Of a DNA stretch of 64,000 nucleotides, positions 11,679 through 58,213 are shown in pieces. Numbering within the stretch: position 1 is the stretch's first letter; every line of letters starts with the position of its first letter. The notes below the pieces were generated by a model. That model searched no databases. It had not been told where the DNA came from and worked only from the letters and a program-made list of their open reading frames with translations. The stretch lies in NCBI GenBank assembly GCA_963682005.1, contig OY820914.1, positions 3,908,145 to 3,972,144 of the forward strand, given 5' to 3'. Made by a program: the position numbers and the translations under genes. Source of the DNA: Bacteroidales bacterium (GTDB lineage Bacteria > Bacteroidota > Bacteroidia > Bacteroidales > FEN-979).

Positions 11679-11712
11679 GCTGGATGCTGGATGCTGGATG
11701 CTGGATGCTGGA
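11679..11712. repeat. tandem heptamer array GCTGGAT x ~4.9
   Basis: Direct reading: gctggatgctggatgctggatgctggatgctgga. The reverse complement CCAGCATCCAGC occurs at 11786-11797. Confidence 0.9.
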
Positions 11713-13171: not shown

Positions 13172-13172
13172 T

Positions 13173-13205
13173 GAATATTGAACATTGAATATTGAACATT
13201 GAATA
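13173..13205. repeat. tandem array GAATATT/GAACATT (14-nt unit x ~2.3)
   Basis: Direct reading immediately after the TAA stop at 13169-13171. A related ggaatattgaatcttga precedes the next start codon. Confidence 0.85.
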
Positions 13206-16656: not shown

Positions 16657-16700
16657 TTTTCACTCTTAACTTTTCACTCTTCACTTTTCACTCTTCACTT
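16657..16700. repeat. tandem 14-nt unit TTTTCACTCTTCAC x ~3
   Basis: Direct reading: ttttcactcttaacttttcactcttcacttttcactcttcactt. Confidence 0.85.
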
Positions 16701-16856: not shown

Positions 16857-16896
16857 CATTTTACATTTTGCATTTTGCATTTTGCATTTTGCATTT
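16857..16896. repeat. tandem heptamer array GCATTTT x ~5.5
   Basis: Direct reading: cattttacattttgcattttgcattttgcattttgcattt. Confidence 0.9.
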
Positions 16897-20319: not shown

Positions 20320-20389
20320 AAATCCAAAATCCAAAATCTAAAGTCTAAAATCTAAAGTCAAAAGTCAAAAGTCAAAAGTTAAAAGTCAA
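20320..20389. repeat. tandem heptamer array AAAATCC/AAAGTCA family x ~10
   Basis: Direct reading: aaatccaaaatccaaaatctaaagtctaaaatctaaagtcaaaagtcaaaagtcaaaagttaaaagtcaa. Confidence 0.9.
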
Positions 20390-20400
20390 CTAAACTTATT

Positions 20401-20430
20401 ATCCCGCATCCCGCATCGCGCATCCCGCAT
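20401..20430. repeat. tandem heptamer array CCCGCAT x ~4
   Basis: Reads atcccgcatcccgcatcgcgcatcccgcat and abuts the stop codon of rSAM-4 (20431). The same unit occurs at 51665-51699. Confidence 0.9.
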
Positions 20431-21975
20431 CTAGGTTCCAGCATCCCTCAACGGTCCCTCATCATGTTCTTTTACGATCTCGCGGTATTTCTCCATATTC
20501 TTTTTATGGTCGAGAATATGACGGTGATAGCCGAGCATGGAGAGCATGAAACCAAGTCCTTTGTCGATGGCGATCTTCTTTTCACGGATCAGTCCGAAGA
20601 TGAACCGGAACAATTTTCTTCGTTCGGGATCGGATGATATTACAAACTCTTTGAACGTGATCCACGATAATCTCGCTTTAAGAAATAGAGAAATATCTCC
20701 TCCTTTGCGTGTGAAAGCCCCGCTGCTGAAAAGTTGTTCGGCTTTAGGCCTTATGTTTTTGAAATCATAGAAACGTGCGATCGTTTCCATGTATTTTTCA
20801 AAGATATCAACCTGTGAAAGATTCTTGTAATGAACCGTCGGGAAATGGCCGACACCCAATTCGGGGTCACAATGCAGCAACCTGCCTTCGTCCTTCAGTC
20901 TTTTATGAAGTTCTGTCCCCGGCGGGGCGGCAAGCAGATGCAGGTTGACATTCGACAGGTCCATTTTCATTGTGAAGTCGAAGATATCGTCAAAAGCCTG
21001 GAGTTTATCATGATCAAAACCAACAACGAATGAGGCATTGATATGGATCCCGGCTGCGTGGATCTTCCGGATGGCGGGTTCGTAGATCGTCGCTTCCTTG
21101 TTATGAAGCTTATTGCTTTCACCAAGGCTTTCGGGGTTCAGCGATTCAAAACCGATGAGGATGTTGAAGCAGCCGGCATCGGCCATGAGTTCCAGCAATT
21201 CCTCATCATTGGCCACATCCAGGCTGCTCATGCAACCCCAGGAAATATTGAGGGGCTTGATGGCCTTCATAAGTTCCTTCGCGTATTTCTTGTTGATGGT
21301 CAGGTTATCATCGACAAAGAAAAAATAGGAGGATGGTGCTGCTTTTATCTCTTCCACCACATTTTCAATGGTGCGGTAGCGCATTTTTCTTCCGAAGATC
21401 TTTGAAACAAGGCAGAAATCGCAGTTGAACGGGCATCCCCTCGAAACCTGGATACCAACCTGGAAGATTTTTTTCATGCTGACAAGGTCCCAGCGGGGCG
21501 GTTTCTGGCTTTTGTACGGTACAGCAATATCAGACCTGTAAACGGGCTTCATATTTCCCTGTTCAAAATCCGAAAGGCATTCTTCCCACAATCCTTCCGC
21601 TTCTCCAACCACCACTGCATCGGCGTGCTTAAGTGATTCTTCCGTTGTGAACGAAGCGTATGGTCCGCCCAGGACGACTTTGACACCTTTTGACCGGTAA
21701 TGATCCGAAAGCTCGTAGGCCCGCGTTATCGTCGCAGCGAGGGTTGTGATCCCGATGATATCCGGTATTTCATTGGCAGGAAGATCCTCAATTTCTTCGT
21801 CAAAGATCTTGATATCGTAATGATCAGGCGTAAGGGAAGCGATGGTTGGGAGCGCCAAAGGGATCATCAGCCGCTTCTTCCCGAACATCTTCGCCAGCTC
21901 ATTGTGGGCCGGGTAGTTGATGTACTTCTGTTTCGGACTGATCAGGAACAGGCTGTATCTCTTTCTGTTAATCAC
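20431..21975 (-). CDS. B12-binding domain-containing radical SAM protein (rSAM-4)
   Basis: 514 aa. It has a B12-binding-like N-terminus (PDIIGITTL...VVLGGPY) and CxxxCxxC in SRGCPFNCDFCLVS. Confidence 0.8.
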   Translation of the reverse strand: MINRKRYSLFLISPKQKYINYPAHNELAKMFGKKRLMIPLALPTIASLTPDHYDIKIFDEEIEDLPANEIPDIIGITTLAATITRAYELSDHYRSKGVKVVLGGPYASFTTEESLKHADAVVVGEAEGLWEECLSDFEQGNMKPVYRSDIAVPYKSQKPPRWDLVSMKKIFQVGIQVSRGCPFNCDFCLVSKIFGRKMRYRTIENVVEEIKAAPSSYFFFVDDNLTINKKYAKELMKAIKPLNISWGCMSSLDVANDEELLELMADAGCFNILIGFESLNPESLGESNKLHNKEATIYEPAIRKIHAAGIHINASFVVGFDHDKLQAFDDIFDFTMKMDLSNVNLHLLAAPPGTELHKRLKDEGRLLHCDPELGVGHFPTVHYKNLSQVDIFEKYMETIARFYDFKNIRPKAEQLFSSGAFTRKGGDISLFLKARLSWITFKEFVISSDPERRKLFRFIFGLIREKKIAIDKGLGFMLSMLGYHRHILDHKKNMEKYREIVKEHDEGPLRDAGT

Positions 21976-21982
21976 CTTCTTT

Positions 21983-22010
21983 AATTACGAATTACGGATT
22001 ACGAATTACG
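21983..22010. repeat. tandem heptamer array AATTACG x 4
   Basis: Reads aattacgaattacggattacgaattacg, 8 nt upstream of the rSAM-4 start. A TTYTCAT x5 array follows at 22021-22055. Confidence 0.9.
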
Positions 22011-22044
22011 AAAGTTTAATTTTTCATTTTTCATTCTTCATTCC

Positions 22045-23196
22045 TCATTCTTCATTGTAAATTATCGAATAGCCTGCCTGCATGAACTTGCTGACTTCAG
22101 TCACAAAACTCAGTATAAGGTCACCATTGTTGAGTTTTTCTTCCTTCCTGATCTTATCTAAGCACAGGAAAGCCATTGGCGGACCGATGTAGCCCATCGT
22201 CGACATTTTTGTATAGAGCGTATTCCTTGAGATGCCAAGTGTTTCGCACTCATCCATCACAAGTTCAGTGATATGCTTTGAGGGAAAGTTAACCTGGAAG
22301 AAGCGGAGCGATGAAAGATCGATCTGGTATTTCGCGATCATCCGCTGTAATCCTTTCAGAAATACAGATCCGTCCGGTTCGTGAAAATTAGCACGAAGTT
22401 CCTCCTGGAACATCTGGGCAAGGTGATGATAGCCTTTCTCAAATTCCTCTTTCGGGTTCATCCAGTAGGAGGGCCGCCTGTTTCCCATGGCTGAGGGCTT
22501 TTTCCCCCCGATGGATTCGGTATAGACATGGTCAATAAAAAGACCGGTCCTGTCATTGTCTTCTGCTTTCAATACCAGCGCAGCGGCCCCGTCGCTTAAA
22601 AAATAGCGAAGGAAAAGTTCTTCTTTCTTTATTAAAGGCTGGTTGTAATATTCCGCCACAAGTTCAGACGAAGACATATTGGAGGAAATGACAAGTGCAT
22701 TTTTATACCGGCCGTTCCTGACCAGGTCATGGGCGAGAAGAAGCGCTTTGTAAGCTGAGGTGCAATTGGCATGAATGGAAAACTCCCCACATTGTTCAAT
22801 CCCAAGTTTCTCCTGGATCCGTACGGAAGCTGTAGGCATCTGGTCCTGGTGGGCGCTGCCGTAAACGATAAGCTCGACTTCATCCGGCTTCATTTGTGCA
22901 TCATCCAGCGCTTTCAGTGCTGCCTTTACCGACATACTCACATTGTCTTCGGTGAACTGCCTTGTAACAGGATCGATTGCAAAATGATAATATTCCACAT
23001 CCAGCATTTCTTTCATCAAAGGCCGTATGCGCTGTTCCCAGTTCCTGATCTTCAATGGCGCATCCTTCACCTCGCCTAAGTAATCATAGAGGTTTTCCAA
23101 CGGAATGGCCGACCCGGGAAGGTAGGTTCCGGTACCCGCCAGCCTGATGAATATCCTGTTATCAATTGTGTTTTTCGTGTTCACCTTATCCCGCAA
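22045..23196 (-). CDS. thiolase-fold KAS III (FabH)-like condensing enzyme
   Basis: 383 aa. It has a FabH-like N-terminus (LAGTGTYLPGSAIPLENL) and a candidate nucleophile in HANCTSAYKALLLA. Assignment within the thiolase superfamily (FabH, DarB or type III PKS-like) cannot be made by eye. Confidence 0.6.
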   Translation of the reverse strand: MRDKVNTKNTIDNRIFIRLAGTGTYLPGSAIPLENLYDYLGEVKDAPLKIRNWEQRIRPLMKEMLDVEYYHFAIDPVTRQFTEDNVSMSVKAALKALDDAQMKPDEVELIVYGSAHQDQMPTASVRIQEKLGIEQCGEFSIHANCTSAYKALLLAHDLVRNGRYKNALVISSNMSSSELVAEYYNQPLIKKEELFLRYFLSDGAAALVLKAEDNDRTGLFIDHVYTESIGGKKPSAMGNRRPSYWMNPKEEFEKGYHHLAQMFQEELRANFHEPDGSVFLKGLQRMIAKYQIDLSSLRFFQVNFPSKHITELVMDECETLGISRNTLYTKMSTMGYIGPPMAFLCLDKIRKEEKLNNGDLILSFVTEVSKFMQAGYSIIYNEE

Positions 23197-36259: not shown

Positions 36260-36319
36260 TTATCCGGAGTATATTTTCAACGTTTATTTTTTACTTCAGG
36301 TTCTGGCTTTCCGTTAACC

Positions 36320-36380
36320 GTCATTCCCGCGAAAGCGGGAACAGGCTGCAGGCTGCAGGCTACAGGCTACAGGCTACAGG
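36320..36380. repeat. composite element: 23-nt hairpin GTCATTCCCGCGAAAGCGGGAAC followed by CAGGCTR x ~5.5
   Basis: Direct reading. An identical 23-mer occurs at 47228-47250 next to a second CAGGCTR array. Confidence 0.9.
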
Positions 36381-36422
36381 ATTGTATGTTCATAATTTTG
36401 GTTAGGAATCATTTCCATTAAA

Positions 36423-36453
36423 ATTCGCAATTCGTAATTCGTCATTCGTAATT
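36423..36453. repeat. tandem heptamer array ATTCGTA x ~4.4 (reverse complement of the AATTACG family)
   Basis: Reads attcgcaattcgtaattcgtcattcgtaatt, ending 3 nt from the ABC ATPase stop codon. Confidence 0.9.
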
Positions 36454-43263: not shown

Positions 43264-43295
43264 AATTACGGATTACGAATTACGGATTACGAATT
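43264..43295. repeat. tandem heptamer array AATTACG/GATTACG x ~4.5
   Basis: Direct reading: aattacggattacgaattacggattacgaatt. Confidence 0.9.
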
Positions 43296-43446: not shown

Positions 43447-44664
43447 TCAGACTTTCCGGATGATCAGCGATGAGTTCGTTCCGCCGAAACCGAAGGAATT
43501 GGAAAGGAAAGCCCTGATATCGAAAAGAGTTGTTTCACGCGCGATATTAAGTTTTCCGGTGATCTCATCCGTATTTTCAAGGTTGATGTTCGGGGCGATA
43601 AATGAATTGTTCATCATCAGGGTGGAATAGACCACTTCGCTGGCGCCTCCCATCCACATTTCATGACCTGTCATCGATTTTGTGCTGCTGACCAGAGGTT
43701 TGGTCTGTCCGAAGACCTGGTAGATCGCCTGGGCTTCGTTACTGTCGCCGGAAGGGGTGGATGTGGCATGTGCATTCACATAATCGATCAGTGAAGGGTC
43801 AATGCCGGCATCTTTCAGCGACATGATCATGGCCCGTGCAGGACCGTCAACATTTGGAAGAGAAATATGTTCCCCATTTGAAGAGAATCCATAACCGATG
43901 ACTTCCCCATAAATATGAGCACCGCGTTTCATGGCTGATTCATAGCTTTCAAGAATCACTGTTGCAGCTCCGCCGCTGGGAACAAGGCCGTCGCGGTCGC
44001 GGTCGAATGGCCGTGATGCTTTTGTCGGTTCTGATTCACGGATGGAAAATGCATTCAGGGCATCAAAGCTGGCAGTCGCTTCCGGGTTGATCTCCTGCGC
44101 ACCGCCGCAGATGATCGTTTCCTGCAAGCCCTGGCGGATTAACAGGTAGCCAAGTCCGATGGCATGTGAACCGCTGGCACAGGCACCGCTGACAGTGAAA
44201 TTGACACCCTTCAGCTTGAATATGACAGACAAATTCATGGAAACAGTTGAATTCATCGACTGGAAAATATATCCCGACCCGATCATCATGCTGTCCTTTT
44301 TTGCACGAAGGATATCAACGGATTCAACAACCGGTAATGCAGAACTATCATTGCCGTAAATGATCCCTACTTCCCTGTTTTCAAGAAAGGACTCATCAAT
44401 AAAGGCAGTTTTCAGGGCTTCAACAGTGGAAACATAGGCATATTCACCCTGGACGGGCAGCCCGATCCGCATCCGGCGGTCGAGGATCCCTTTCAATACA
44501 GGTTTTTCCACCATTCCGGTAAGTGCCGAGCGAAATCCCATCTCTTTCCTCACCGGGTCAAAAATTATCCCCGATCTTCCTTCGTACAATGATTTTTTAA
44601 CATCCTCAAGATTTTTTCCAAGGACAGAATAGATACCCATTCCTGTGATAACGACGCGATTCAT
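43447..44664 (-). CDS. beta-ketoacyl-ACP synthase (KS-A, FabB/F-like)
   Basis: 405 aa with SGACASGSHAIGLG, NAHATSTPSGD, MTGHEMWMGG and NSFGFGGTNSSLII. Confidence 0.9.
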   Translation of the reverse strand: MNRVVITGMGIYSVLGKNLEDVKKSLYEGRSGIIFDPVRKEMGFRSALTGMVEKPVLKGILDRRMRIGLPVQGEYAYVSTVEALKTAFIDESFLENREVGIIYGNDSSALPVVESVDILRAKKDSMMIGSGYIFQSMNSTVSMNLSVIFKLKGVNFTVSGACASGSHAIGLGYLLIRQGLQETIICGGAQEINPEATASFDALNAFSIRESEPTKASRPFDRDRDGLVPSGGAATVILESYESAMKRGAHIYGEVIGYGFSSNGEHISLPNVDGPARAMIMSLKDAGIDPSLIDYVNAHATSTPSGDSNEAQAIYQVFGQTKPLVSSTKSMTGHEMWMGGASEVVYSTLMMNNSFIAPNINLENTDEITGKLNIARETTLFDIRAFLSNSFGFGGTNSSLIIRKV

Positions 44665-44707
44665 CTTCCCGTGTGCGCAGTTGGTTAGTAATTCATTGGT
44701 TTATGAT

Positions 44708-44728
44708 GCTGGTTGCTGGATGCTGGAT
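44708..44728. repeat. tandem heptamer array GCTGGWT x 3
   Basis: Reads gctggttgctggatgctggat; the same unit as 11679-11712. Confidence 0.85.
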
Positions 44729-44736
44729 ATATACCC

Positions 44737-44767
44737 ATTCGTAATTCGTAATTCGTAATTCGTAATT
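44737..44767. repeat. tandem heptamer array ATTCGTA x ~4.4
   Basis: Reads attcgtaattcgtaattcgtaattcgtaatt and runs into the FabG stop codon at 44766-44768. Confidence 0.9.
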
Positions 44768-45536: not shown

Positions 45537-47090
45537 TTACTCTTCGATCGAGAATTGCGGCTTATTCTCCATAATATATAGCTCGATATTCCGGATATCC
45601 TTGTATTTGATCGAATCTTCGGTGAATTTGGGTACGATCTTCCTGAGATCATCGTATTTGCTCAGCGAATAGGTTGAAAGACGATCCTTGATATTAAGGT
45701 AGTCGATAGCCTGAAGGATCGAGATCATTTCGATGGCAAGCACCTGGTAGGTATTGTCGATGATCTTCTTCGCCAGCAGGGCCGCGTTGGTCCCCATGCT
45801 GACAATATCCTGGTTATCGTTATTGTTTGTGATACTATGGATATACATCGGGAAAGAAAGGGTCTGATTCTCAGCCACAGTTGAAACGGCCGTGAACTGA
45901 ACTCCCTGCATTCCGAGGTTAAGTCCGAGTTTGCCCAGGTTTACGAACGGGGGCAGCTTCTCATTCAGCTTCGGGTTCATCAGGTAATTGAGCTGCCTTT
46001 CTGCAAGCATTGACAGCTTGGTTATCGCGATCTTGAGTTTATCCATTTCCAGCGCAACATAATCCCCGTGGAAATTGCCCCCGTGATATACATTGTGATG
46101 TTCACCATCGATGATCGGGTTGTCGCTGGTAGAATTCACTTCATTCATCAGCACATGGGTGGTGTAGAAGATCGTGTCGAGCACCGGACCGAGAACTTGT
46201 GGAACACAGCGGAGTGAGTAATATTCTTGCACTTTATGCTTGAACACTTCCACATCCACTGTATTATCGTTGTTGTAAAGGTGATCAGCTCTCCGGCGGA
46301 TCAGATGACTGTCTTTCAGGATAAATTTCATCGTCCTTGCCACCTGCCGCTGACCATGATGTGACTTGGCCCTGTTTAGCCCGTCGGAGAAATGGTCGTC
46401 GTAAGATTCAACGATCTCTGTGATCATCGAAGATGCAAGCGTAGACCAGTCAAGAAGGTTACGGGCATGAATGGTATTGATCATCCCGATGCCTGTCATG
46501 GCCGAGGTTCCGTTGATCAGCCCAAGCCCTTCACGGATATGCATTTTGATCGGGACAAGGCCCGTTTCTGCAAATACTTCATTGGTTGGCCGGAGCTCTC
46601 CGTTGTATGTCACTTCTCCCTCCCCGATAAGATTTAAAGCCAGGTGTGCAAGCTGCACCAGATCACCACTTGCACCTACACCGCCATGTTCGGGGATGTA
46701 AGGATAGATGTCGCGGTTGATCATCTCTTTAAGCAGTTCAACCACTTCCGGGTGGATCCCGGATTTGGCCTGCACAAGTGTGTTCAGCCGGGCAAGCATG
46801 GTAGCTTTGGCATAAATATCCGGAAGGGGGCTGCCGCATCCGGCTGCATGACTGCGGATCAGGTTGTATTGTAATTCAAGCTCCTTGTTATTGTTGATCT
46901 TGAACTGGGCCATAGGTCCCAGTCCGGTATTGATCCCATAGATAACTTTCCCTTTTGCAAATTCTTTCAGGAATTCAAAATCCTCTGAAACTTTCCTACG
47001 GGCTTCTATATCGATATCAACTTTCTCGCCTTCAAATAATATCTTAAAAAAATCTCCTACAGTTAGTTTTCTGTTTCCAATAAGTATCAT
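45537..47090 (-). CDS. aromatic amino acid ammonia-lyase (MIO-dependent; HAL/TAL family, flexirubin-type TAL-like)
   Basis: 517 aa with the MIO-forming ASG in GGVGASGDLVQLAHL. Also present are YGINTGLGPMA, QEYYSLRCVPQVLGP and NQDIVSMG. From memory the overall sequence resembles the Flavobacterium tyrosine ammonia-lyase. Confidence 0.9.
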   Translation of the reverse strand: MILIGNRKLTVGDFFKILFEGEKVDIDIEARRKVSEDFEFLKEFAKGKVIYGINTGLGPMAQFKINNNKELELQYNLIRSHAAGCGSPLPDIYAKATMLARLNTLVQAKSGIHPEVVELLKEMINRDIYPYIPEHGGVGASGDLVQLAHLALNLIGEGEVTYNGELRPTNEVFAETGLVPIKMHIREGLGLINGTSAMTGIGMINTIHARNLLDWSTLASSMITEIVESYDDHFSDGLNRAKSHHGQRQVARTMKFILKDSHLIRRRADHLYNNDNTVDVEVFKHKVQEYYSLRCVPQVLGPVLDTIFYTTHVLMNEVNSTSDNPIIDGEHHNVYHGGNFHGDYVALEMDKLKIAITKLSMLAERQLNYLMNPKLNEKLPPFVNLGKLGLNLGMQGVQFTAVSTVAENQTLSFPMYIHSITNNNDNQDIVSMGTNAALLAKKIIDNTYQVLAIEMISILQAIDYLNIKDRLSTYSLSKYDDLRKIVPKFTEDSIKYKDIRNIELYIMENKPQFSIEE

Positions 47091-47155
47091 TCTATGTTCA
47101 GTTAAATTGCCGGAGGAATCTGCCTTATCATTCCGGTCCGGTTCGCTCCAATCAG

Positions 47156-47185
47156 CAAAGGTACATTTTTTTTGTGAAATGCAAA
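47156..47185 (-). promoter_or_regulatory. candidate Bacteroidetes promoter (TTTG-N18-TAccTTTG) for the ammonia-lyase-led operon
   Basis: The minus strand reads gcataTTTGcatttcacaaaaaaaatgTACCTTTGctg. This matches the -33 TTTG / -7 TAnnTTTG consensus described for Bacteroides promoters. The -7 box ends 66 nt upstream of the ATG at 47090. Confidence 0.4.
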
Positions 47186-47188
47186 TAT

Positions 47189-47250
47189 GCAGGCTGCAGG
47201 CTACAAGCTACAGGCTTTCGCCGTGCCGTCATTCCCGCGAAAGCGGGAAC
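47189..47250. repeat. composite element: CAGGCTR-type array x4 followed by the 23-nt hairpin GTCATTCCCGCGAAAGCGGGAAC
   Basis: Reads gcaggctgcaggctacaagctacaggct ... gtcattcccgcgaaagcgggaac. The order is opposite to the 36320-36380 copy. Confidence 0.9.
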
Positions 47251-47332
47251 GGGCTTCGGGCTTTATTAAGAAATAAATATAAAGTTAGTGTATTACCTTT
47301 TACAATCCCGGAAGATTAATGAGAAAAGAATT

Positions 47333-47467
47333 ATGAGTTACAAATCACTTGAAATCTGGAAAATTGCGGATGACCTGGTTATTAAGATCCATGAGATGAC
47401 GATTCAAAATCTGCCAAAATTTGAAATGAATGAAACAGGAAGCCTGATAAGAAGATCTATCAAATAA
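47333..47467 (+). pseudogene. N-terminal fragment of a four-helix-bundle (23S rRNA-IVS-type) protein gene
   Basis: MSYKSLEIWKIADDLVIKIHEMTIQNLPKFEMNETGSLIRRSIK* matches the usual start of this family (M.YK.LEVWK.A..L...IY..T..FPK.E...L..QLRR...S). It stops 14 nt before the RAYT left inverted repeat. Confidence 0.5.
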
Positions 47468-47480
47468 GAAAGACAATATG

Positions 47481-48042
47481 AATTACCCCGGCCTTCAGGC
47501 CGGGGGTTGACGAAGGTAAAAGCACCGGGCTTTAGCCCAAAAAAGAAGATCATGGGATATATAAAAATCTGGGTACATCTGGTCTGGACAACTAAAAACA
47601 GAGAACCCATTTTAACGTCTGAAATCAGAAAACAGATTTTCAATCATATAAGGGAAAATGCTGTTAATAAAGGTATTTATATTGATTTTCTAAATGGTTA
47701 TCTTGAGCATGTTCATTGCCTTGTCTCCCTTGGTTCTGGCCAGAATATCGATAAAATCCTGATGCTGTTAAAAGGCAAATCTTCATTCTGGATAAATAAA
47801 GCCAGAATCTTTCCGCAAAAGTTTGAATGACAGGATGAATACTTTGCAGTATCCGTAAGTCAATCTGCAGTTAGCAATGTCAGAGAATACATAAGAAAAC
47901 AAGAAGAACATCATCGGAAGTATTCCTTTGAGAAAGAGTATGAAGAGTTTATCAAAAAGTACGGCTTTGACAAACTGATTTCGGGCTAAAGCCCTTATTA
48001 AGCACGTCTATCTGAACCCCCGGCCTGAAGGTCGGGGTAATT
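47481..48042 (+). mobile_element. REP-flanked RAYT unit (IS200/IS605-like Y1 transposase between inverted REP hairpins)
   Basis: The left end AATTACCCCGGCCTTCAGGCCGGGGGTTGA (47481-47510) is the near-perfect reverse complement of the right end TGAACCCCCGGCCTGAAGGTCGGGGTAATT (48013-48042). There is an inner inverted pair GGGCTTTAGCCC (47527-47538) / GGGCTAAAGCCC (47983-47994). Confidence 0.65.
47552..47989 (+). pseudogene. REP-associated tyrosine transposase (IS200-like Y1 transposase) with in-frame TGA
   Basis: MGYIKIWVHLVWTTKNREPIL...LEHVHCLVSL (HUH motif) ...FPQKFE*QDEYFAVSVS...VREYIRKQEEHH (catalytic Tyr helix). The TGA at 47828-47830 sits where the family has a conserved Trp (FEW.DEY). 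The frame continues for 52 codons to the TAA at 47987-47989. Confidence 0.7.
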
Positions 48043-48312
48043 CAGAACTGGCATTAATTTCTGGTACGCATTATTGTGATAAGCCGAAAACTCTATCACT
48101 TCCTTCTGAAAATAAAGGAAGATTGTTGAAGAGAAAATATACTTGTATATCTCCGGTGATGTATATCCGCAGACGATAACTTTAGGGAAAGTAAATTCAT
48201 GGATGTTAACGAATCTTGTGAACAAGTGGCTCGCAGCATTTGATTTACCGGAAATTTCCTCGCTCCTCGTTTTGCGGATTATTAAAATTGCCTTACCTTT
48301 GCCCGCAGAATT

Positions 48313-48386
48313 GGCTCCGTGGCGTAACTGAATAGCGCATCTGACTACGGATCAGAAGGTTACAGGTTTGAATCCTGTCGGAGTCA
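48313..48386 (+). tRNA. tRNA-Arg(ACG): tRNA-Arg (anticodon ACG)
   Basis: Hand-folded cloverleaf. Acceptor stem GGCTCCG/CGGAGTC (one G-T pair), D stem GCGT/GCGC, anticodon stem TCTGA/TCAGA with loop CTACGGA, 5-nt variable loop, T stem ACAGG/CCTGT with loop TTTGAAT, discriminator A. No CCA is encoded. Confidence 0.85.
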
Positions 48387-48398
48387 CAAGACAAATGT

Positions 48399-48442
48399 AA
48401 AGTGCAAGGTGCAAAGTGTAACTAATTTGCACTTTGCACTTT
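48399..48442 (+). terminator. hairpin downstream of tRNA-Arg (possible intrinsic terminator)
   Basis: AAAGTGCAAGGTGCA pairs with TGCACTTTGCACTTT (one mismatch) across a 14-nt loop, followed by the T-rich ttcgtttta. Confidence 0.4.
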
Positions 48443-48941
48443 TCGTTTTACACGTTAGACTTCGAACTTTTCAATTTGCACCTTCCAAGGAATCTTTTGA
48501 CTGTCGTTTCAATGACTGATCACGAGTTTCCTGGTTTCTATGCCAGTCGTCGTTTCCATGCTCACATATAGATACCGCTGTGCAAAGAATACATTCATAA
48601 TCCATGGCAGCATCACCAGCAAGACTACATGATTTTTCATATTAATGTGAGTTTATCTTGTTTTCGATATACCATATATGTCTTTCAAATAACATAAGTG
48701 CGATCCATGCAAATACGTTACAGTGAGAAAAAATGAGAACTCCGTATTGTTGAGGAAGCGGAAGAATTGTCAGCTTTTAATCGCCCTATCTGGTCCCGTT
48801 GTAGACCCATGGTGAACCCATTCATCACCCGTCCAGGTTTTTCGTTTCATTCACAGGAATGATATGACAGGTTGGCAGTAGAAATTGTCAATGCTGCCTG
48901 TTGTTAAATTACATATTTATACGTTAATACTGATTTATTTG

Positions 48942-48984: not shown

Positions 48985-50241
48985 ATGAAAAGCAGAATTT
49001 TTTTCTTTTTGGTACTGGCGATGAGCATGTTTACTATTCCAGTCTTTTCTCAGACAGAAAGTAAAACAGCGAAAGATACCACATTATTGGGTCTGCCCGG
49101 AGACAATCTGGACCTTTATGCAGTATTGGAACTTTTTCAAAAGTCAAAGACCATTGAAGACTTTGAGAAATCGTTAAATGAAGAAAAGACAGGGATCAAT
49201 AACCTGGATCTTAATTTGGATGGGAAAGTTGATTTCATCAAGGTTGTAACAAAGAAAAATGGGGACGATTTTACATTTATTCTTCAGGTAGATGTGAGTA
49301 AGACGGAAAAGCAGGATGTCGCTGTTATCTTAGTTACAAAAGATAAGAATAAGAAAGTTTCGATACAGATTGTCGGCGACAAGGCATTGTACGGTAAGGA
49401 TTATATTGTCGAGCCAAAGCCGACTGCAACTCCGGCTGTTACTGCAAATCCAGGGTACACCGGTTCAGAACCGGTGACGGTGAATGTTCCGTCTTCAACC
49501 ACAGTTGTAGTTGTGGAATCGGCACCTATTGTGCAGTATGTTTATTCACCTGCGTATGTGCCCTACGTTCCGCCCTATTATTATGGATTCTATCCGCCTT
49601 ATTTTGCAGCATTTACTGTAATGGCTGTAAGTGTTTACCGTCACAATAATTATTATTACCATGGCGGCGGATATGGGTATGGTTATCATGGGAATACCAC
49701 AGTAATTCATAATACCAACAATTACAATAATTACAATAATTCGAGGAGCTCTTCCAATACTGTGAATCATAATAATGCGAATGGAAATTACAATCGGAAT
49801 AATGGATCAGCAGGTAATCGGCCTTCGACACAACCGGCGAACCGTCAGTCAGGAGGCGCTTCCCCCTCGACCCAGCCTGCAAACCGTCAGTCAGGAGGTG
49901 CTTCACCCTCAACCCAGCCTGCAAACCGTCAATCAGGAGGTGCTTCACCCTCAACCCAGCCTGCGAAACGTCAGTCAGGAGGTGCTTCACCCTCAACACA
50001 ACCCACAAACCGTCAATCAGGAGGCGTTTCACCTTCGACCCAGCAATCAAATCGTCAATCAAGTCCGTCATCAAATTCATATAACGGCCGTAATTCTAAT
50101 AGCGGAAGTCAAATGGGAGGCGGCAGTTCCAGAGGAGGAAGCAGTTATAGCGGAGGTAGTTCAAGAGGCGGAGGTGGTTATAGCGGAGGCGGCGGTTCAA
50201 GAGGTGGTGGAGGTTCCAGAGGCGGCGGAGGCAGACGATAA
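48985..50241 (+). CDS. secreted low-complexity protein with EF-hand-like loop, Tyr/Pro-rich segment, 14-aa tandem repeats and Gly/Arg/Ser tail
   Basis: 418 aa. It has a signal peptide (MKSRIFFFLVLAMSMFTIPVFSQ) and a DLNLDGKVDF Ca-loop-like motif. It also has YVPYVPPYYYGFYPPYF, five or more copies of PSTQPANRQSGGAS, and a GGSSRGGGGYSGGGGSRGGGGSRGGGGRR tail. Confidence 0.7.
   Translation: MKSRIFFFLVLAMSMFTIPVFSQTESKTAKDTTLLGLPGDNLDLYAVLELFQKSKTIEDFEKSLNEEKTGINNLDLNLDGKVDFIKVVTKKNGDDFTFILQVDVSKTEKQDVAVILVTKDKNKKVSIQIVGDKALYGKDYIVEPKPTATPAVTANPGYTGSEPVTVNVPSSTTVVVVESAPIVQYVYSPAYVPYVPPYYYGFYPPYFAAFTVMAVSVYRHNNYYYHGGGYGYGYHGNTTVIHNTNNYNNYNNSRSSSNTVNHNNANGNYNRNNGSAGNRPSTQPANRQSGGASPSTQPANRQSGGASPSTQPANRQSGGASPSTQPAKRQSGGASPSTQPTNRQSGGVSPSTQQSNRQSSPSSNSYNGRNSNSGSQMGGGSSRGGSSYSGGSSRGGGGYSGGGGSRGGGGSRGGGGRR
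49822..50070 (+). repeat. 42-bp in-frame tandem repeat, ~5.9 copies
   Basis: Unit ccctcaacccagcctgcaaaccgtcagtcaggaggtgcttca. The central copies differ by 2-3 nt and the edge copies are more diverged. Confidence 0.9.
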
Positions 50242-51547: not shown

Positions 51548-51606
51548 AGTCTTCAGTTTTTTCGGCAAACATAAAAATAAAAACCAGAGAAATCAAATCT
51601 TTCAGG

Positions 51607-51641
51607 AATTATGAATTATGAGTTTGAGTTATGAATTATGA
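51607..51641. repeat. AATTATG-family tandem repeat
   Basis: Reads aattatgaattatgagtttgagttatgaattatga; compare 23872-23899. Confidence 0.85.
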
Positions 51642-51664
51642 TACAAATTGTTTCCTTAATCTCA

Positions 51665-51699
51665 CGCATCCCGCATCCCGTATCCCGCATCCCGCATCA
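51665..51699. repeat. tandem heptamer array CGCATCC (=CCCGCAT family) x 5
   Basis: Reads cgcatcccgcatcccgtatcccgcatcccgcatca and overlaps the TGA stop (51697-51699) of the M6 protease gene. Confidence 0.9.
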
Positions 51700-57906: not shown

Positions 57907-58188
57907 ATGGAGAATGATACGGGGAAAAAAGGAAAAAGTAAGTGGGTCAGGTATCTCGGTTTCGGTCTGATATTCCTGACATGGATCATCTGGGGTGTGA
58001 TCTTCCTGATCCCTTTCCTTCATCTTGGATTGAAAAAAGCGGCGATCGCAACAACGGTCCTCTTAATCGCCACAAATATTTTTTACCTTGGACTTTTTCT
58101 TGTCGGGAAAGAACTTGCAGAGAAGTTCAATATCCGGGGAAAGATAAAGGCCTGGATGATGAGGAGGAAATCAAAAGGCGGAGGATAG
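57907..58188 (+). CDS. small two-TM membrane protein (transporter-suffix-domain-like)
   Basis: About 93 aa from MENDTGKK with two hydrophobic helices (LGFGLIFLTWIIWGVIFLIPFL and AAIATTVLLIATNIFYLGLFLVG). The family name is from memory only. Confidence 0.4.
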   Translation: MENDTGKKGKSKWVRYLGFGLIFLTWIIWGVIFLIPFLHLGLKKAAIATTVLLIATNIFYLGLFLVGKELAEKFNIRGKIKAWMMRRKSKGGG

Positions 58189-58213
58189 TGAATAGTGAAT
58201 AGTGAATAGTGAA
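58186..58213. repeat. tandem heptamer array TAGTGAA x 4
   Basis: Reads tagtgaatagtgaatagtgaatagtgaa, starting at the TAG stop of the upstream gene. Confidence 0.9.

Follow-up and report, generated by a model that had tools for sequence, protein, structure and literature searches.

Introduction

Subclass 1.2 of the TnpA_Y1 transposases has been described as a set of enzymes of ~148 aa from Bacteroidetes and Cyanobacteria with a Y---Q--HH tyrosine motif, a WQ motif, an HUH motif of the form DH[IV]H and a specific C-terminal extension, of which a genome carries few and diverged copies, as a rule with no secondary structure at the ends; copies of subclass 1.1, by comparison, average 99.4% identity (Quentin, Siguier, Chandler and Fichant 2018, BMC Genomics, PMC6006769). 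Subclass 1.1 comprises the IS200/IS605 elements (e.g., IS608 and ISDra2), which carry subterminal hairpins at both ends. IS200/IS605 elements are not known to have terminal inverted repeats (TIRs) or target duplications. RAYT/TnpA_REP genes are reportedly associated with REP and REPIN sequences (Nunvar 2010; Bertels and Rainey 2011; Ton-Hoang 2012) and are bracketed by inverted palindromic hairpins with a short conserved tail, which in the REPs of E. coli is GTAG. Mobile insertion cassettes and MITE-like shells are defined by a TIR and a target-site duplication and are mobilized in trans, and the four-helix-bundle (4HB) proteins of the PF05635/TIGR02436 (23S-rRNA-IVS-protein) family are 123–125 aa long.

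Here we analyze a locus at which a gene of the first kind adjoins a gene of the last. The window (i.e., the whole stretch of DNA analyzed, 64 kb) holds one transposase copy, and the features around it are collected in Table 1.

Results

Table 1. Features of the transposase–4HB locus, in window coordinates.
Feature	Position	Strand	Remark
Heptamer array, ~4 units (CAGGCTG/CAGGCTA/CAAGCTA)	47187..47216	+	Left boundary of 4HB cassette; TRF
Hairpin GTCATTCCCGCGAAAGCGGGAAC in left flank of 4HB cassette	47226..47251	+	Second copy at 36316-36343
4HB (23S-rRNA-IVS-protein family) stump	47333..47467	+	Codons 1-44 and a TAA apparently made by the junction
Left spacer of transposase unit, AAGAAAGACAATA	47466..47478	+	Sister-copy homology starts here
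Outer left hairpin and tail, TGAATTA-CCCCGGCC-TTCA-GGCCGGGG	47479..47508	+	
Inner left hairpin, GGGCTTTAGCCC	47527..47538	+	
TnpA_Y1 frame (IS200-like; fits subclass 1.2)	47552..47989	+	145 codons; HUH at LEHVHCL, Tyr113 in VREYIRKQEEHH
TGA, in frame, at the codon of invariant Trp93	47828..47830	+	One transition from TGG; next base C
Inner right hairpin, GGGCTAAAGCCC	47983..47994	+	Loop holds the gene's TAA stop (47987-47989)
Outer right hairpin and tail, CCCCGGCC-TGAA-GGTCGGGG-TAATTCA	48015..48044	+	Covariation across family
Right spacer of unit	48045..48062	+	Kept in sister copies
Right arm of the outermost (terminal) inverted repeat, GGTACGCATTATTGTGATAAGCC	48063..48085	+	Sister-copy homology stops here
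185 nt holding the 4HB C-terminus proposed earlier	48086..48270	.	No significant similarity
Stretch conserved in relatives, upstream of tRNA	48271..48312	+	blastn alignments begin at ~48270 in L093/L098
tRNA-Arg(ACG)	48313..48387	+	

Read through its internal stop, the transposase frame covers positions 4–121 of the 121 in Pfam Y1_Tnp (PF01797; E=1.5e-25, 90.1 bits, cut-off 23). This agrees with the preliminary description, which had recognized a Y1 HUH transposase frame with an HVH motif and a tyrosine helix. Both the HUH residues (H53-V-H55) and the catalytic Tyr113 are in frame, split by the TGA at codon 93, and no uninterrupted polypeptide of the window copy contains the two together. The closest solved structures are those of ISDra2 and IS608 TnpA (2XM3, E=1e-7; 2A6M, E=2e-5), both of which align with it at the HUH motif, at the conserved Trp and at the catalytic Tyr, and no TnpA_REP structure was among the PDB matches at E≤0.01. 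The gene had also been called a RAYT, but the protein scored 21.9 bits against the NCBIfam REP_Tyr_transpos model (NF047646, cut-off 80) as compared to 64.2 bits against the IS200 equivalog model (NF033573, cut-off 55), and its tyrosine motif, YIRKQEEHH (family consensus YIKNQEEHH), is of the form Y---Q--HH rather than the class-2 YI..NP. Identity as a class-2 RAYT was not supported, and of the two profile families named for this protein, Y1_Tnp was upheld whereas the REP-associated tyrosine transposases were not.

All 13 aligned homologs are 145 aa long and 70–88% identical. Y113, Q117 and H120 are invariant in a further alignment and H121 almost so; the C-terminal residues 120–145 are likewise conserved, with K123, F126, E129, Y130, F133, Y137 and G145 invariant. 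On its sequence, the protein fits subclass 1.2 of TnpA_Y1, the sister group of IS200 TnpA, with which it shares the tyrosine motif, the WQ motif (whose W is the codon mutated here), the approximate length, the C-terminal extension, the Bacteroidetes/Cyanobacteria range and the low count of diverged copies (the best 80 loci fall in 79 genomes, and the copies compared here are 85–91% identical in nucleotides). It differs in its HUH motif, for which most family members have EHVH instead of DH[IV]H.

The internal TGA stands exactly at a conserved Trp, as had been proposed: Trp93 is present in 13 of 13 aligned homologs, encoded by TGG in each, and the stop recurs at 47828-47830 in a second assembly (ENA contig L172; 99.98% identical, one indel) of the same population and possibly of the same sample as the window. 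Because 16 of the window's 41 long ORFs end in TGA, it is a normal stop here, and an alternative genetic code was discarded. All 52 codons past the TGA are open, 48 of the 52 being identical to P0001, and the dN/dS of the frame against L091 was 0.09 overall and 0.12 past the stop; these low values indicate that the lesion is recent. Judged by this sequence record (dN/dS about 0.1), the gene is undecayed but for its stop codon. The earlier statement that the transposase and 4HB genes "both have since decayed" is thus not borne out, as the former has a single lesion and the stump of the latter is intact and well conserved. Lacking the Tyr113 helix, the truncated 92-residue product should be inactive.

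The gene is enclosed by nested inverted repeats. The outer hairpins with their tails (47479-47508 and 48015-48044) form a 30-nt inverted repeat that is 97% complementary, and the hairpin motif had 0 occurrences in shuffled sequence. Across the family, 89.7% of cells in the stem of the outer right hairpin were paired versus 66.5% in shuffles, with compensatory changes in six of eight pairs. The 30-bp hairpins and the inner pair noted previously are real, although the coordinates given for the former were 2 nt off and the 30-bp pair is not the outermost layer. Sister copies possess a third, outermost 23-bp inverted repeat (arm GGTWCATCACAGWAATGYRTAC), of which the window keeps the right arm only; at its left, the window unit is missing ~30 nt that are present in sister copies (the 23-nt outermost left arm and 7 nt). 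In its complete form, known from sister copies, the unit wraps the gene in three nested layers: GGGCTTTAGCCC hairpins innermost, then 8-bp GC hairpins that bear a conserved TGAATTA/TAATTCA tail, and outermost the 23-bp TIR. Four other transposase units have a right flank homologous to 48045-48085, and because the outermost right arm within that stretch (48063-48085) matches that of sister copies, the stretch is element DNA and not a 4HB remnant. We take the mobile unit to be the 620-nt segment 47466-48085, in one copy.

At least three further copies, making at least four in all, appear to lie in the same genome, an attribution drawn from a shared ENA assembly. Two are intact (P0002 and P0153) and one has a 5' deletion (P0152); L174 and L175 were the loci read among them, and the three copies compared are those that gave the nucleotide identities above. 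The TIRs of sister copies are imperfect and flanked by direct repeats, which at L174 are ATAAAATT (8/8) and at L175 are AATTTGT (7 nt, offset 1). Empty TIR shells were not found in the sequence at hand. Within the rest of the 64-kb window there was neither an outer hairpin with up to 3 mismatches nor an inner hairpin with up to 1, and a scan for perfect stems (7 bp or longer) yielded no similar hairpins, so that the REP relatives once placed elsewhere in the window have no counterpart in its other 63 kb. Hairpin copies are also few within 3 kb on either side of the loci in other genomes; one solo module lies near L174.

To the left of the unit, the 44-codon ORF was confirmed as a 4HB N-terminus. 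It scored 72.6 bits against an HMM built from 14 homologs (positions 1–44 of 125) and matched Pfam PF05635 over profile positions 1–38 of 106 (E=4e-4; 20.9 bits, cut-off 33.8), which is not a full-length match. The stump is 80% identical to P0122 with no frameshifts and matches the invariant 4HB positions L6, E7, W9, P28, E31, E34, G36, I39, R40, R41, S42, I43 and K44; at the DNA level it shares 73% identity with the genes of three homologs as far as the junction, where similarity stops. Thus, while it aligns with residues 1–44 of PF05635/TIGR02436 members, only the first third is present, and it lies in a heptamer-bounded intergenic cassette outside 23S rRNA. Heptamer arrays occur on both sides of the 4HB genes in L085, L086, L089 and L092; a search for an inverted (reverse-complement) partner of the array at 47187-47216 found no copy. 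Since there were no 4HB genes near other transposase copies (80 loci, 3 kb each side), the two genes are not habitually linked.

To the right of the unit, 4HB remnants had been proposed, but part of that DNA is the unit's own, and the remainder scored no better than shuffles; when the split fragments were aligned with homologs, the left piece matched and the right pieces did so at chance level. The segment 48086-48270 had no significant match among 4HB sequences, relatives' spacers, ~170 other loci or the rest of the window. For 4HB in the right flank, hmmsearch on six-frame pieces gave nothing significant, frameshift-tolerant profile alignment, run both anchored and locally, was matched or beaten by 49 of 200 and by 105 of 200 shuffles (44–68 of 300 with softer penalties and restricted profile ranges), and an ungapped scan with the 4HB C-terminal profile by 179 of 1000. 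Pfam had no match to hand-built reconstructions of the flank, and its DNA showed no similarity to the L092 4HB cassette (121 of 500 shuffles). What resemblance there is consists of a collinear, non-significant path from 48097 to 48240 along 4HB profile positions 80–124 (14.9 bits, p about 0.15–0.2), the residues ITLGK at 48179-48193, which are like the 4HB C-terminal LITLGKK, and a 29-nt DNA match of 76% to L089 codons 103–112 (E=1.0). An 11-nt match between the right flanks of the window and L091 (TGAAAATAAAG) was judged too weak, and the hypothesis that the L091 site was the donor was rejected, the gene downstream at L091 (pseudouridine-synthase-like) being absent from the window.

The tRNA-Arg(ACG), reported at 48313, was found there and was the single match in an Rfam scan of the region. 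Within the conserved stretch upstream of it (48271-48312), TACCTTTG is presumably a Bacteroidota-type -7 box. The locus occupies the spacer between this tRNA and a HAL gene, and relatives whose HAL genes are 73–92% identical were compared. The spacer is empty (about 150 nt) in seven of them (L094, L098, L099, L100, L102, L103 and L105), contains a 4HB cassette with transposase absent in L092, and is filled by other genes in L093, L095 and L096; this transposase unit was never seen in the spacer of these relatives. Sequence comparison therefore points to a variable hot spot, in which the arrangement of unit and 4HB gene is lineage-specific.

Discussion

The window copy is disabled twice over, by the stop at Trp93 and by the loss of its left arm, and represents an ordinary mobile-element copy that lost its function recently. 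We consider it probable that a disabled subclass 1.2 unit and a neighboring 4HB cassette have been joined by one deletion; because both partners are cut short at the junction, a single deletion fusing two neighboring elements fits best. The unit would have inserted beside the 4HB cassette in the HAL–tRNA-Arg spacer, and a single deletion would then have taken out the 4HB gene from codon 45 onward, together with the cassette's right heptamer array and the leftmost 30 nt of the unit (outermost arm and 7 nt), joining 4HB codon 44 to the left spacer of the unit and making the TAA at the joint. Separately and very recently, TGG at Trp93 would have become TGA. None of the relatives was found in the pre-deletion state, and this order of events is a reconstruction. 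The foot of the left hairpin is 20 nt away from the breakpoint, a distance similar to that of the left cleavage site in IS608, and the joint could have been made by the transposase and not by random deletion. However, an IS608-type cleavage tetranucleotide at the breakpoint was dropped from consideration, and we do not call it a cleavage site because L091 and L007 stay homologous through that point and share no common motif. In a variant of this course of events, to which the weak, non-significant collinear path to 4HB positions 80–124 would correspond, the unit may have inserted inside the 4HB gene at about codon 80 and the deletion followed.

The preliminary description had envisaged instead that a whole unit inserted cleanly in an intact 4HB gene, whose right half was afterwards scrambled by frameshifts. 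A disabled transposase beside a truncated 4HB gene is indeed what is present, but the clean split and the surviving right half are not, and we regard this scenario as unlikely. Although the 4HB frame stops exactly at the start of the unit, the total lengths are about compatible and the faint right-flank resemblances (ITLGK, the collinear path and the 29-nt L089 match) point the same way, the supposed middle remnant at 48045-48085 is unit DNA conserved in four other copies, the left arm of the unit itself is gone, and no right-flank statistic rose above shuffles, Pfam being empty. The 185 nt at hand fall short of the at least 243 nt plus heptamer array that would be needed, and the right heptamer array is missing. 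Moreover, the left stump is pristine, so DNA of equal age on the right should still be recognizable, and it is not.

By analogy with Y1 enzymes of the IS200/IS605 type, an intact enzyme would bind single-stranded DNA at subterminal hairpins, next to which it would cleave and religate the strand via a 5'-phosphotyrosine, the covarying hairpins with their invariant tail being the presumed substrates; the intact paralogs that the genome appears to hold could act in trans. A more speculative reading, to which we attach a low probability, is that the unit is an undescribed type of mobile element with two layers, in which a Y1 gene and its hairpins sit in a 23-bp TIR shell with 8-bp target duplications. 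Such a shell would be moved by a DDE enzyme in trans or by an unknown activity of subclass 1.2, the Y1 enzyme would serve another hairpin-directed function, and what the window contains would be a relic of such a composite, with one arm and a nonsense mutation. Mobile insertion cassettes and MITE-like shells share with the sister copies the imperfect TIR and the direct flanking repeats; they differ in that no partner DDE transposase was found here and the window copy is right-armed only.

It is very unlikely that the stop is leaky, with near-cognate reading of UGA-C by tRNA-Trp rarely restoring the Trp and the allele down-tuned rather than dead. In E. coli, UGA read-through by tRNA-Trp and the weak UGA-C context are established, and at this locus it is specifically a Trp that is replaced, a C follows the stop, and the downstream frame is wholly conserved. 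However, every aligned homolog has TGG and the 120 homologs listed are almost all of full length, so the stop is no conserved trait; this copy has lost its left arm as well, and recent inactivation accounts equally well for the conservation.

We find it still harder to credit that the gene is a class-2 RAYT, domesticated and single-copy, which lost its function recently and whose REPs are spread genome-wide (REPIN-type). Many homologs are labeled "REP element-mobilizing transposase RayT" by JGI annotation, and, as with RAYT/TnpA_REP, a Y1 HUH gene is bracketed by inverted palindromic hairpins with a short conserved tail, mostly in one copy per genome across species (the search that gave the best 80 loci covered 185,579 species genomes) and in syntenic placement within genera, as seen from shared flanks. 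Against this, the protein falls far under the cut-off of the RAYT model and has another tyrosine motif, the genome apparently has at least four copies, and dispersed hairpins were seen neither in the 64 kb nor, beyond a few, within 3 kb of other genomes' loci. Least probable of all is that the gene is functional and its TGA an error of sequencing or assembly: the lesion is single and the frame beyond it open, P0001-like and of low dN/dS, but substitution errors in consensus sequence are rare and the second assembly, though it may share the sample, has the same TGA.

For the window itself the finding carries little weight, being a small transposase-like unit, recently disabled, next to an accessory gene that is truncated, in a spacer that differs among relatives. 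The locus does exemplify heptamer-array-bounded cassettes (of 4HB genes and others), which are frequent in this genome and apparently undescribed. Of wider interest is that subclass 1.2 enzymes have been described once so far, as lacking end structures, whereas Bacteroidota members do carry covarying hairpins: the nested hairpins with tail and stem covariation are found here and in many related loci, and the closest copies add the 23-bp TIR. The published trait of generally having no terminal secondary structures, which the window unit does not show, is descriptive and not a strict criterion. The covarying hairpins with their invariant tail offer a concrete candidate for the DNA substrate of subclass 1.2 enzymes. 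As compared to the IS200/IS605 elements, with which the HUH, Trp and Tyr residues and the subterminal hairpins at both ends are held in common, the copies here are not near-identical, each end hairpin repeats the other in inverted orientation, and sister copies have a TIR, with apparent 8-bp direct duplications on two of them. The TIRs and apparent target duplications of the closest copies are thus at odds with the mode of movement of IS200/IS605.

Results

With its internal stop read as Trp, the frame at the centre of the transposase unit matches Pfam Y1_Tnp over the whole profile (E=1.5e-25) and holds both the HUH motif (LEHVHCL) and VREYIRKQEEHH, in agreement with the preliminary description of a Y1 gene broken by a TGA at a conserved Trp. 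Position 93 is Trp in 13/13 aligned homologues, and of 1,915 relatives found among 5.8 billion proteins, the top 120 nearly all have a length of exactly 145 aa, at 67–88% identity to the window transposase. Because TGA closes 16 of the window's 41 long ORFs, the standard genetic code applies and an alternative code was rejected. The truncated 92-aa product is also recorded on a second contig (ENA ERZ21878447 ctg32362l), which over 4,651 nt matches the window at 99.98% identity with one indel. The element and the adjoining four-helix-bundle gene (4HB; 23S-rRNA-IVS-type, PF05635) had both been thought decayed; the stop codon stands, and further decay does not, as dN/dS against the copy at locus L091 (88% aa identity) is 0.09 across the whole frame and 0.12 over codons 94–145 (dS 0.35–0.8) and the 4HB stump is pristine. 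No decay is seen in the transposase frame beyond its stop.

The window transposase passes the NCBIfam IS200 model (64.2 bits, cut-off 55) and fails that for REP-associated tyrosine transposases (21.9 bits, cut-off 80). Its nearest solved structures are ISDra2 and IS608 TnpA, whose conserved Trp and catalytic Tyr align with the mutated Trp and Tyr113. Proteins of Y1 subclass 1.2, as defined by Quentin et al. 2018 (PMC6006769), are ~148 aa long, bear a Y---Q--HH signature together with a WQ motif, have a specific C-terminal domain and occur in low copy number; judged by its sequence, the window transposase fits this description. Given this fit and the failed REP model, "RAYT", the name first given to it, is by sequence the wrong label, although some behaviour is RAYT-like.

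Features of the locus, related copies and relatives' spacers
Feature	Position or locus	Strand	Remarks
Ammonia-lyase (HAL) gene	45537-47090		metagenome relatives 73-92% identical
Left heptamer array of 4HB cassette	47187-47216		
ORF, 4HB N-terminus	47333-47467		44 codons; HMM of 14 homologues, 72.6 bits
Outer inverted repeat	47479-47508 / 48015-48044		30 nt, 97% complementary
Inner inverted pair	47527-47538 / 47983-47994		GGGCTTTAGCCC
Y1 transposase frame	47552-47989	+	145 codons; translation
In-frame TGA	47828-47830	+	codon 93; translation
Outermost right arm of unit	48063-48085		conserved spacer precedes it
tRNA-Arg(ACG)	48313-48387		
Heptamer array sites (examples)	11679-11712, 13172-13205, 16657-16700, 16857-16896, 20320-20431, 21983-22056, 36341-36380, 36422-36453, 43264-43295, 44705-44767, 47190-47216, 48399-48481, 51606-51698, 58185-58213		
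Further family member	P0002		intact; 83% identical
Further family member	P0153		intact
Further family member	P0152		138 aa
Spacer empty	L094, L098, L099, L100, L102, L103, L105		about 150 nt
Spacer with internally deleted 4HB cassette	L092 (HAL 91%)		CTCGTTT/AAACGAG arrays; no transposase
Spacer with 305-aa gene	L093		between CGATTTA arrays
Spacer with 506-aa oxidoreductase-like gene	L095, L096		

The near-perfect inverted repeats and inner pair reported earlier were recovered, and each outer arm is by itself an 8-bp GC hairpin. Across 80 loci drawn from species genomes, the majority in Bacteroidota and a few in Acidobacteriota, Calditrichia and Ignavibacteria, the common layout is a GGCTAAAGCC-type hairpin enclosing the stop codon, followed 20–40 nt later by a GC-rich 8-bp hairpin that closes a T[AG]AA loop and then [CT]AATTCA; a subset carries the mirror image of both hairpins upstream of the gene. 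The tail motif is present in 34/78 loci, and when it alone anchored the alignment, with no selection for pairing, 89.7% of stem cells were paired as compared to 66.5% in shuffles (0/500 as high), with compensatory changes in 6/8 stem pairs and 27–46% pairing in slid registers. The flanking hairpins are real and conserved. Downstream of tnpA in several genomes (L078, L080, L037, L024, and L043), the right half of the outer hairpin recurs with its tail as partial copies in tandem (e.g., GGAGGCAATTCAGAT x3).

The closest copies to the window unit are L091, L007, and two sister copies from the same assembly, L174 and L175. All four carry a 23-nt outermost inverted repeat (GGTTCATCACAGTAATGCGTACC ... 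GGTACGCATTACTGTGATGAACC) ~20 nt outside the outer hairpins, a motif found neither elsewhere in the window nor in other loci. Because the window shares the right arm and spacer with its sister copies, and homology among the five ends at 48085, 48045–48085 belongs to the transposase unit rather than to the start of 4HB remnants. At the left end, similarity to the other copies begins only at 47466 (AAGAAAGACAATA); 4HB codons replace the expected 7 nt plus 23-nt arm, and the unit is itself truncated on that side.

Three further family members are recorded, as are the window's own proteins, on a 5,265,860-nt contig, so that intact copies do appear to exist in the same genome. The P0153 and P0152 loci (L174 and L175), which come from the same ENA assembly, are complete units with both arms. 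The P0152 gene has lost ~15 nt near its 5′ end, at codons 4–8 (ATGGGCTAT|TGCATCTGG; L175 2494–2520), so that it too is probably a pseudogene. A solo hairpin module with no gene (L174 3120–3195; outer hairpin ATTACCCCGGCCTTAAGGCCGGGGTAAGTCA plus the inner motif GGGCTTTAGCCC) lies ~100 nt past the P0153 unit and is the only one seen for this genome. Direct repeats flank the copies in L174 (ATAAAATT, 8/8), L175 (AATTTGT) and L007 (7/8); a pairing of terminal inverted repeats and target duplications is not what IS200/IS605-type movement would be expected to give. Unlike fresh IS copies, the units are only 85–91% identical among themselves, which fits the published account of subclass 1.2. At L012 (3001–3561) and L014 (1037–1599) the 145-aa query matched over ~560 nt as compared to 435 nt expected, which suggests insertions inside the transposase gene.

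The 4HB N-terminus noted to the left of the element was confirmed by a homologue profile; its DNA is 73% identical to three homologue genes, and the likeness stops within 4 nt of the junction. The remnants proposed to its right (~48046–48240) were not recovered. Frameshift-tolerant dynamic programming and ungapped scans of 48042–48260, 48086–48260, and 48088–48270 gave 4HB scores equalled by shuffles in 49/200, 105/200, 44–68/300, and 179/1000 trials, and Pfam matched none of the reconstructions. Aligned with a relative's 4HB cassette, the right flank is at chance level (121/500), whereas the cassette's left flank is clearly homologous to the window (0/500). An inverted partner of the 47187–47216 array is absent from the window.

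The tRNA-Arg(ACG) lies where it had been placed. The HAL–tRNA-Arg spacer (window 47091–48312) is a hot spot, empty in seven relatives and holding three different cargos in four others. None of these eleven spacers has a Y1 unit, and its presence here is therefore lineage-specific. P0122, from an unrelated contig, resembles the window stump more closely (80% aa) than the L092 gene does (about 50%); 4HB cassettes thus probably reached this spacer more than once.

Tandem arrays of 3–9 heptamers, with many different unit sequences, occupy about 20 intergenic window sites (TRF); their sequences bear no relation to the transposase hairpins, and they are reminiscent of the STRR heptamer repeats of cyanobacteria. 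Inverted arrays bracket the 4HB genes of L085, L086, L089, and L092 and the 305-aa gene of L093, and may represent a general cassette or RNA-stem architecture. An AATTACG array (43264–43295) and its reverse complement ATTCGTA (44737–44767) bracket a 405-aa ORF (43447–44664, minus strand) in the same design. The hairpin GTCATTCCCGCGAAAGCGGGAAC lies beside CAGGCTN arrays at two distant sites (36316–36343 and 47226–47251). Directly after tRNA-Arg, inverted heptamers (GTGCAAG/GTGCAAA and TTGCACT/TTGCAC) form a strong hairpin (48393–48452; dG −16.9, z −4.95) that may act as a terminator or mark an "empty" array site. A 418-aa low-complexity ORF (48985–50241, plus strand) has tandem repeats of 42 nt and 84 nt (SGGASPSTQPANRQ units) and a tail rich in Gly, Ser and Arg.

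Discussion

We consider it reasonably probable that the unit and a 4HB cassette once lay side by side in the hot-spot spacer, and that one deletion removed two-thirds of the 4HB gene from its 3′ end, the right heptamer array and the unit's left arm, and so created the TAA at the joint. The TGG to TGA change would have come afterwards, stripping the catalytic helix from the transposase product. A single deletion would cut both partners at the joint, and would leave a pristine stump on the left and nothing recognisable on the right.

The main rival, that the unit inserted inside the 4HB gene and a deletion followed, seems unlikely. The right flank holds two unproven hints of 4HB sequence, a short ITLGK motif and a collinear path that scores weakly, at 14.9 bits. 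A clean insertion splitting the gene, as originally envisaged, is not favoured, since the unit lacks its left arm, the right flank is at chance level, and only 185 nt separate the unit from the conserved region upstream of the tRNA, as compared to 243 nt of missing coding sequence. Insertion into the gene, with its right half afterwards lost and scrambled, also needs more events than the deletion model, which is preferred partly for that reason. What probability remains is shared by a sequencing error, a stop that is leaky, and a genuine REP system.

The element is an ordinary copy, disabled recently, of a Y1 transposase subclass that is known but has been little studied. Three wider points are worth a specialist's note, although they do not make the locus itself remarkable: the hairpins conserved in subclass 1.2, the shell of inverted repeats with its duplications, and the cassettes bounded by heptamer arrays.
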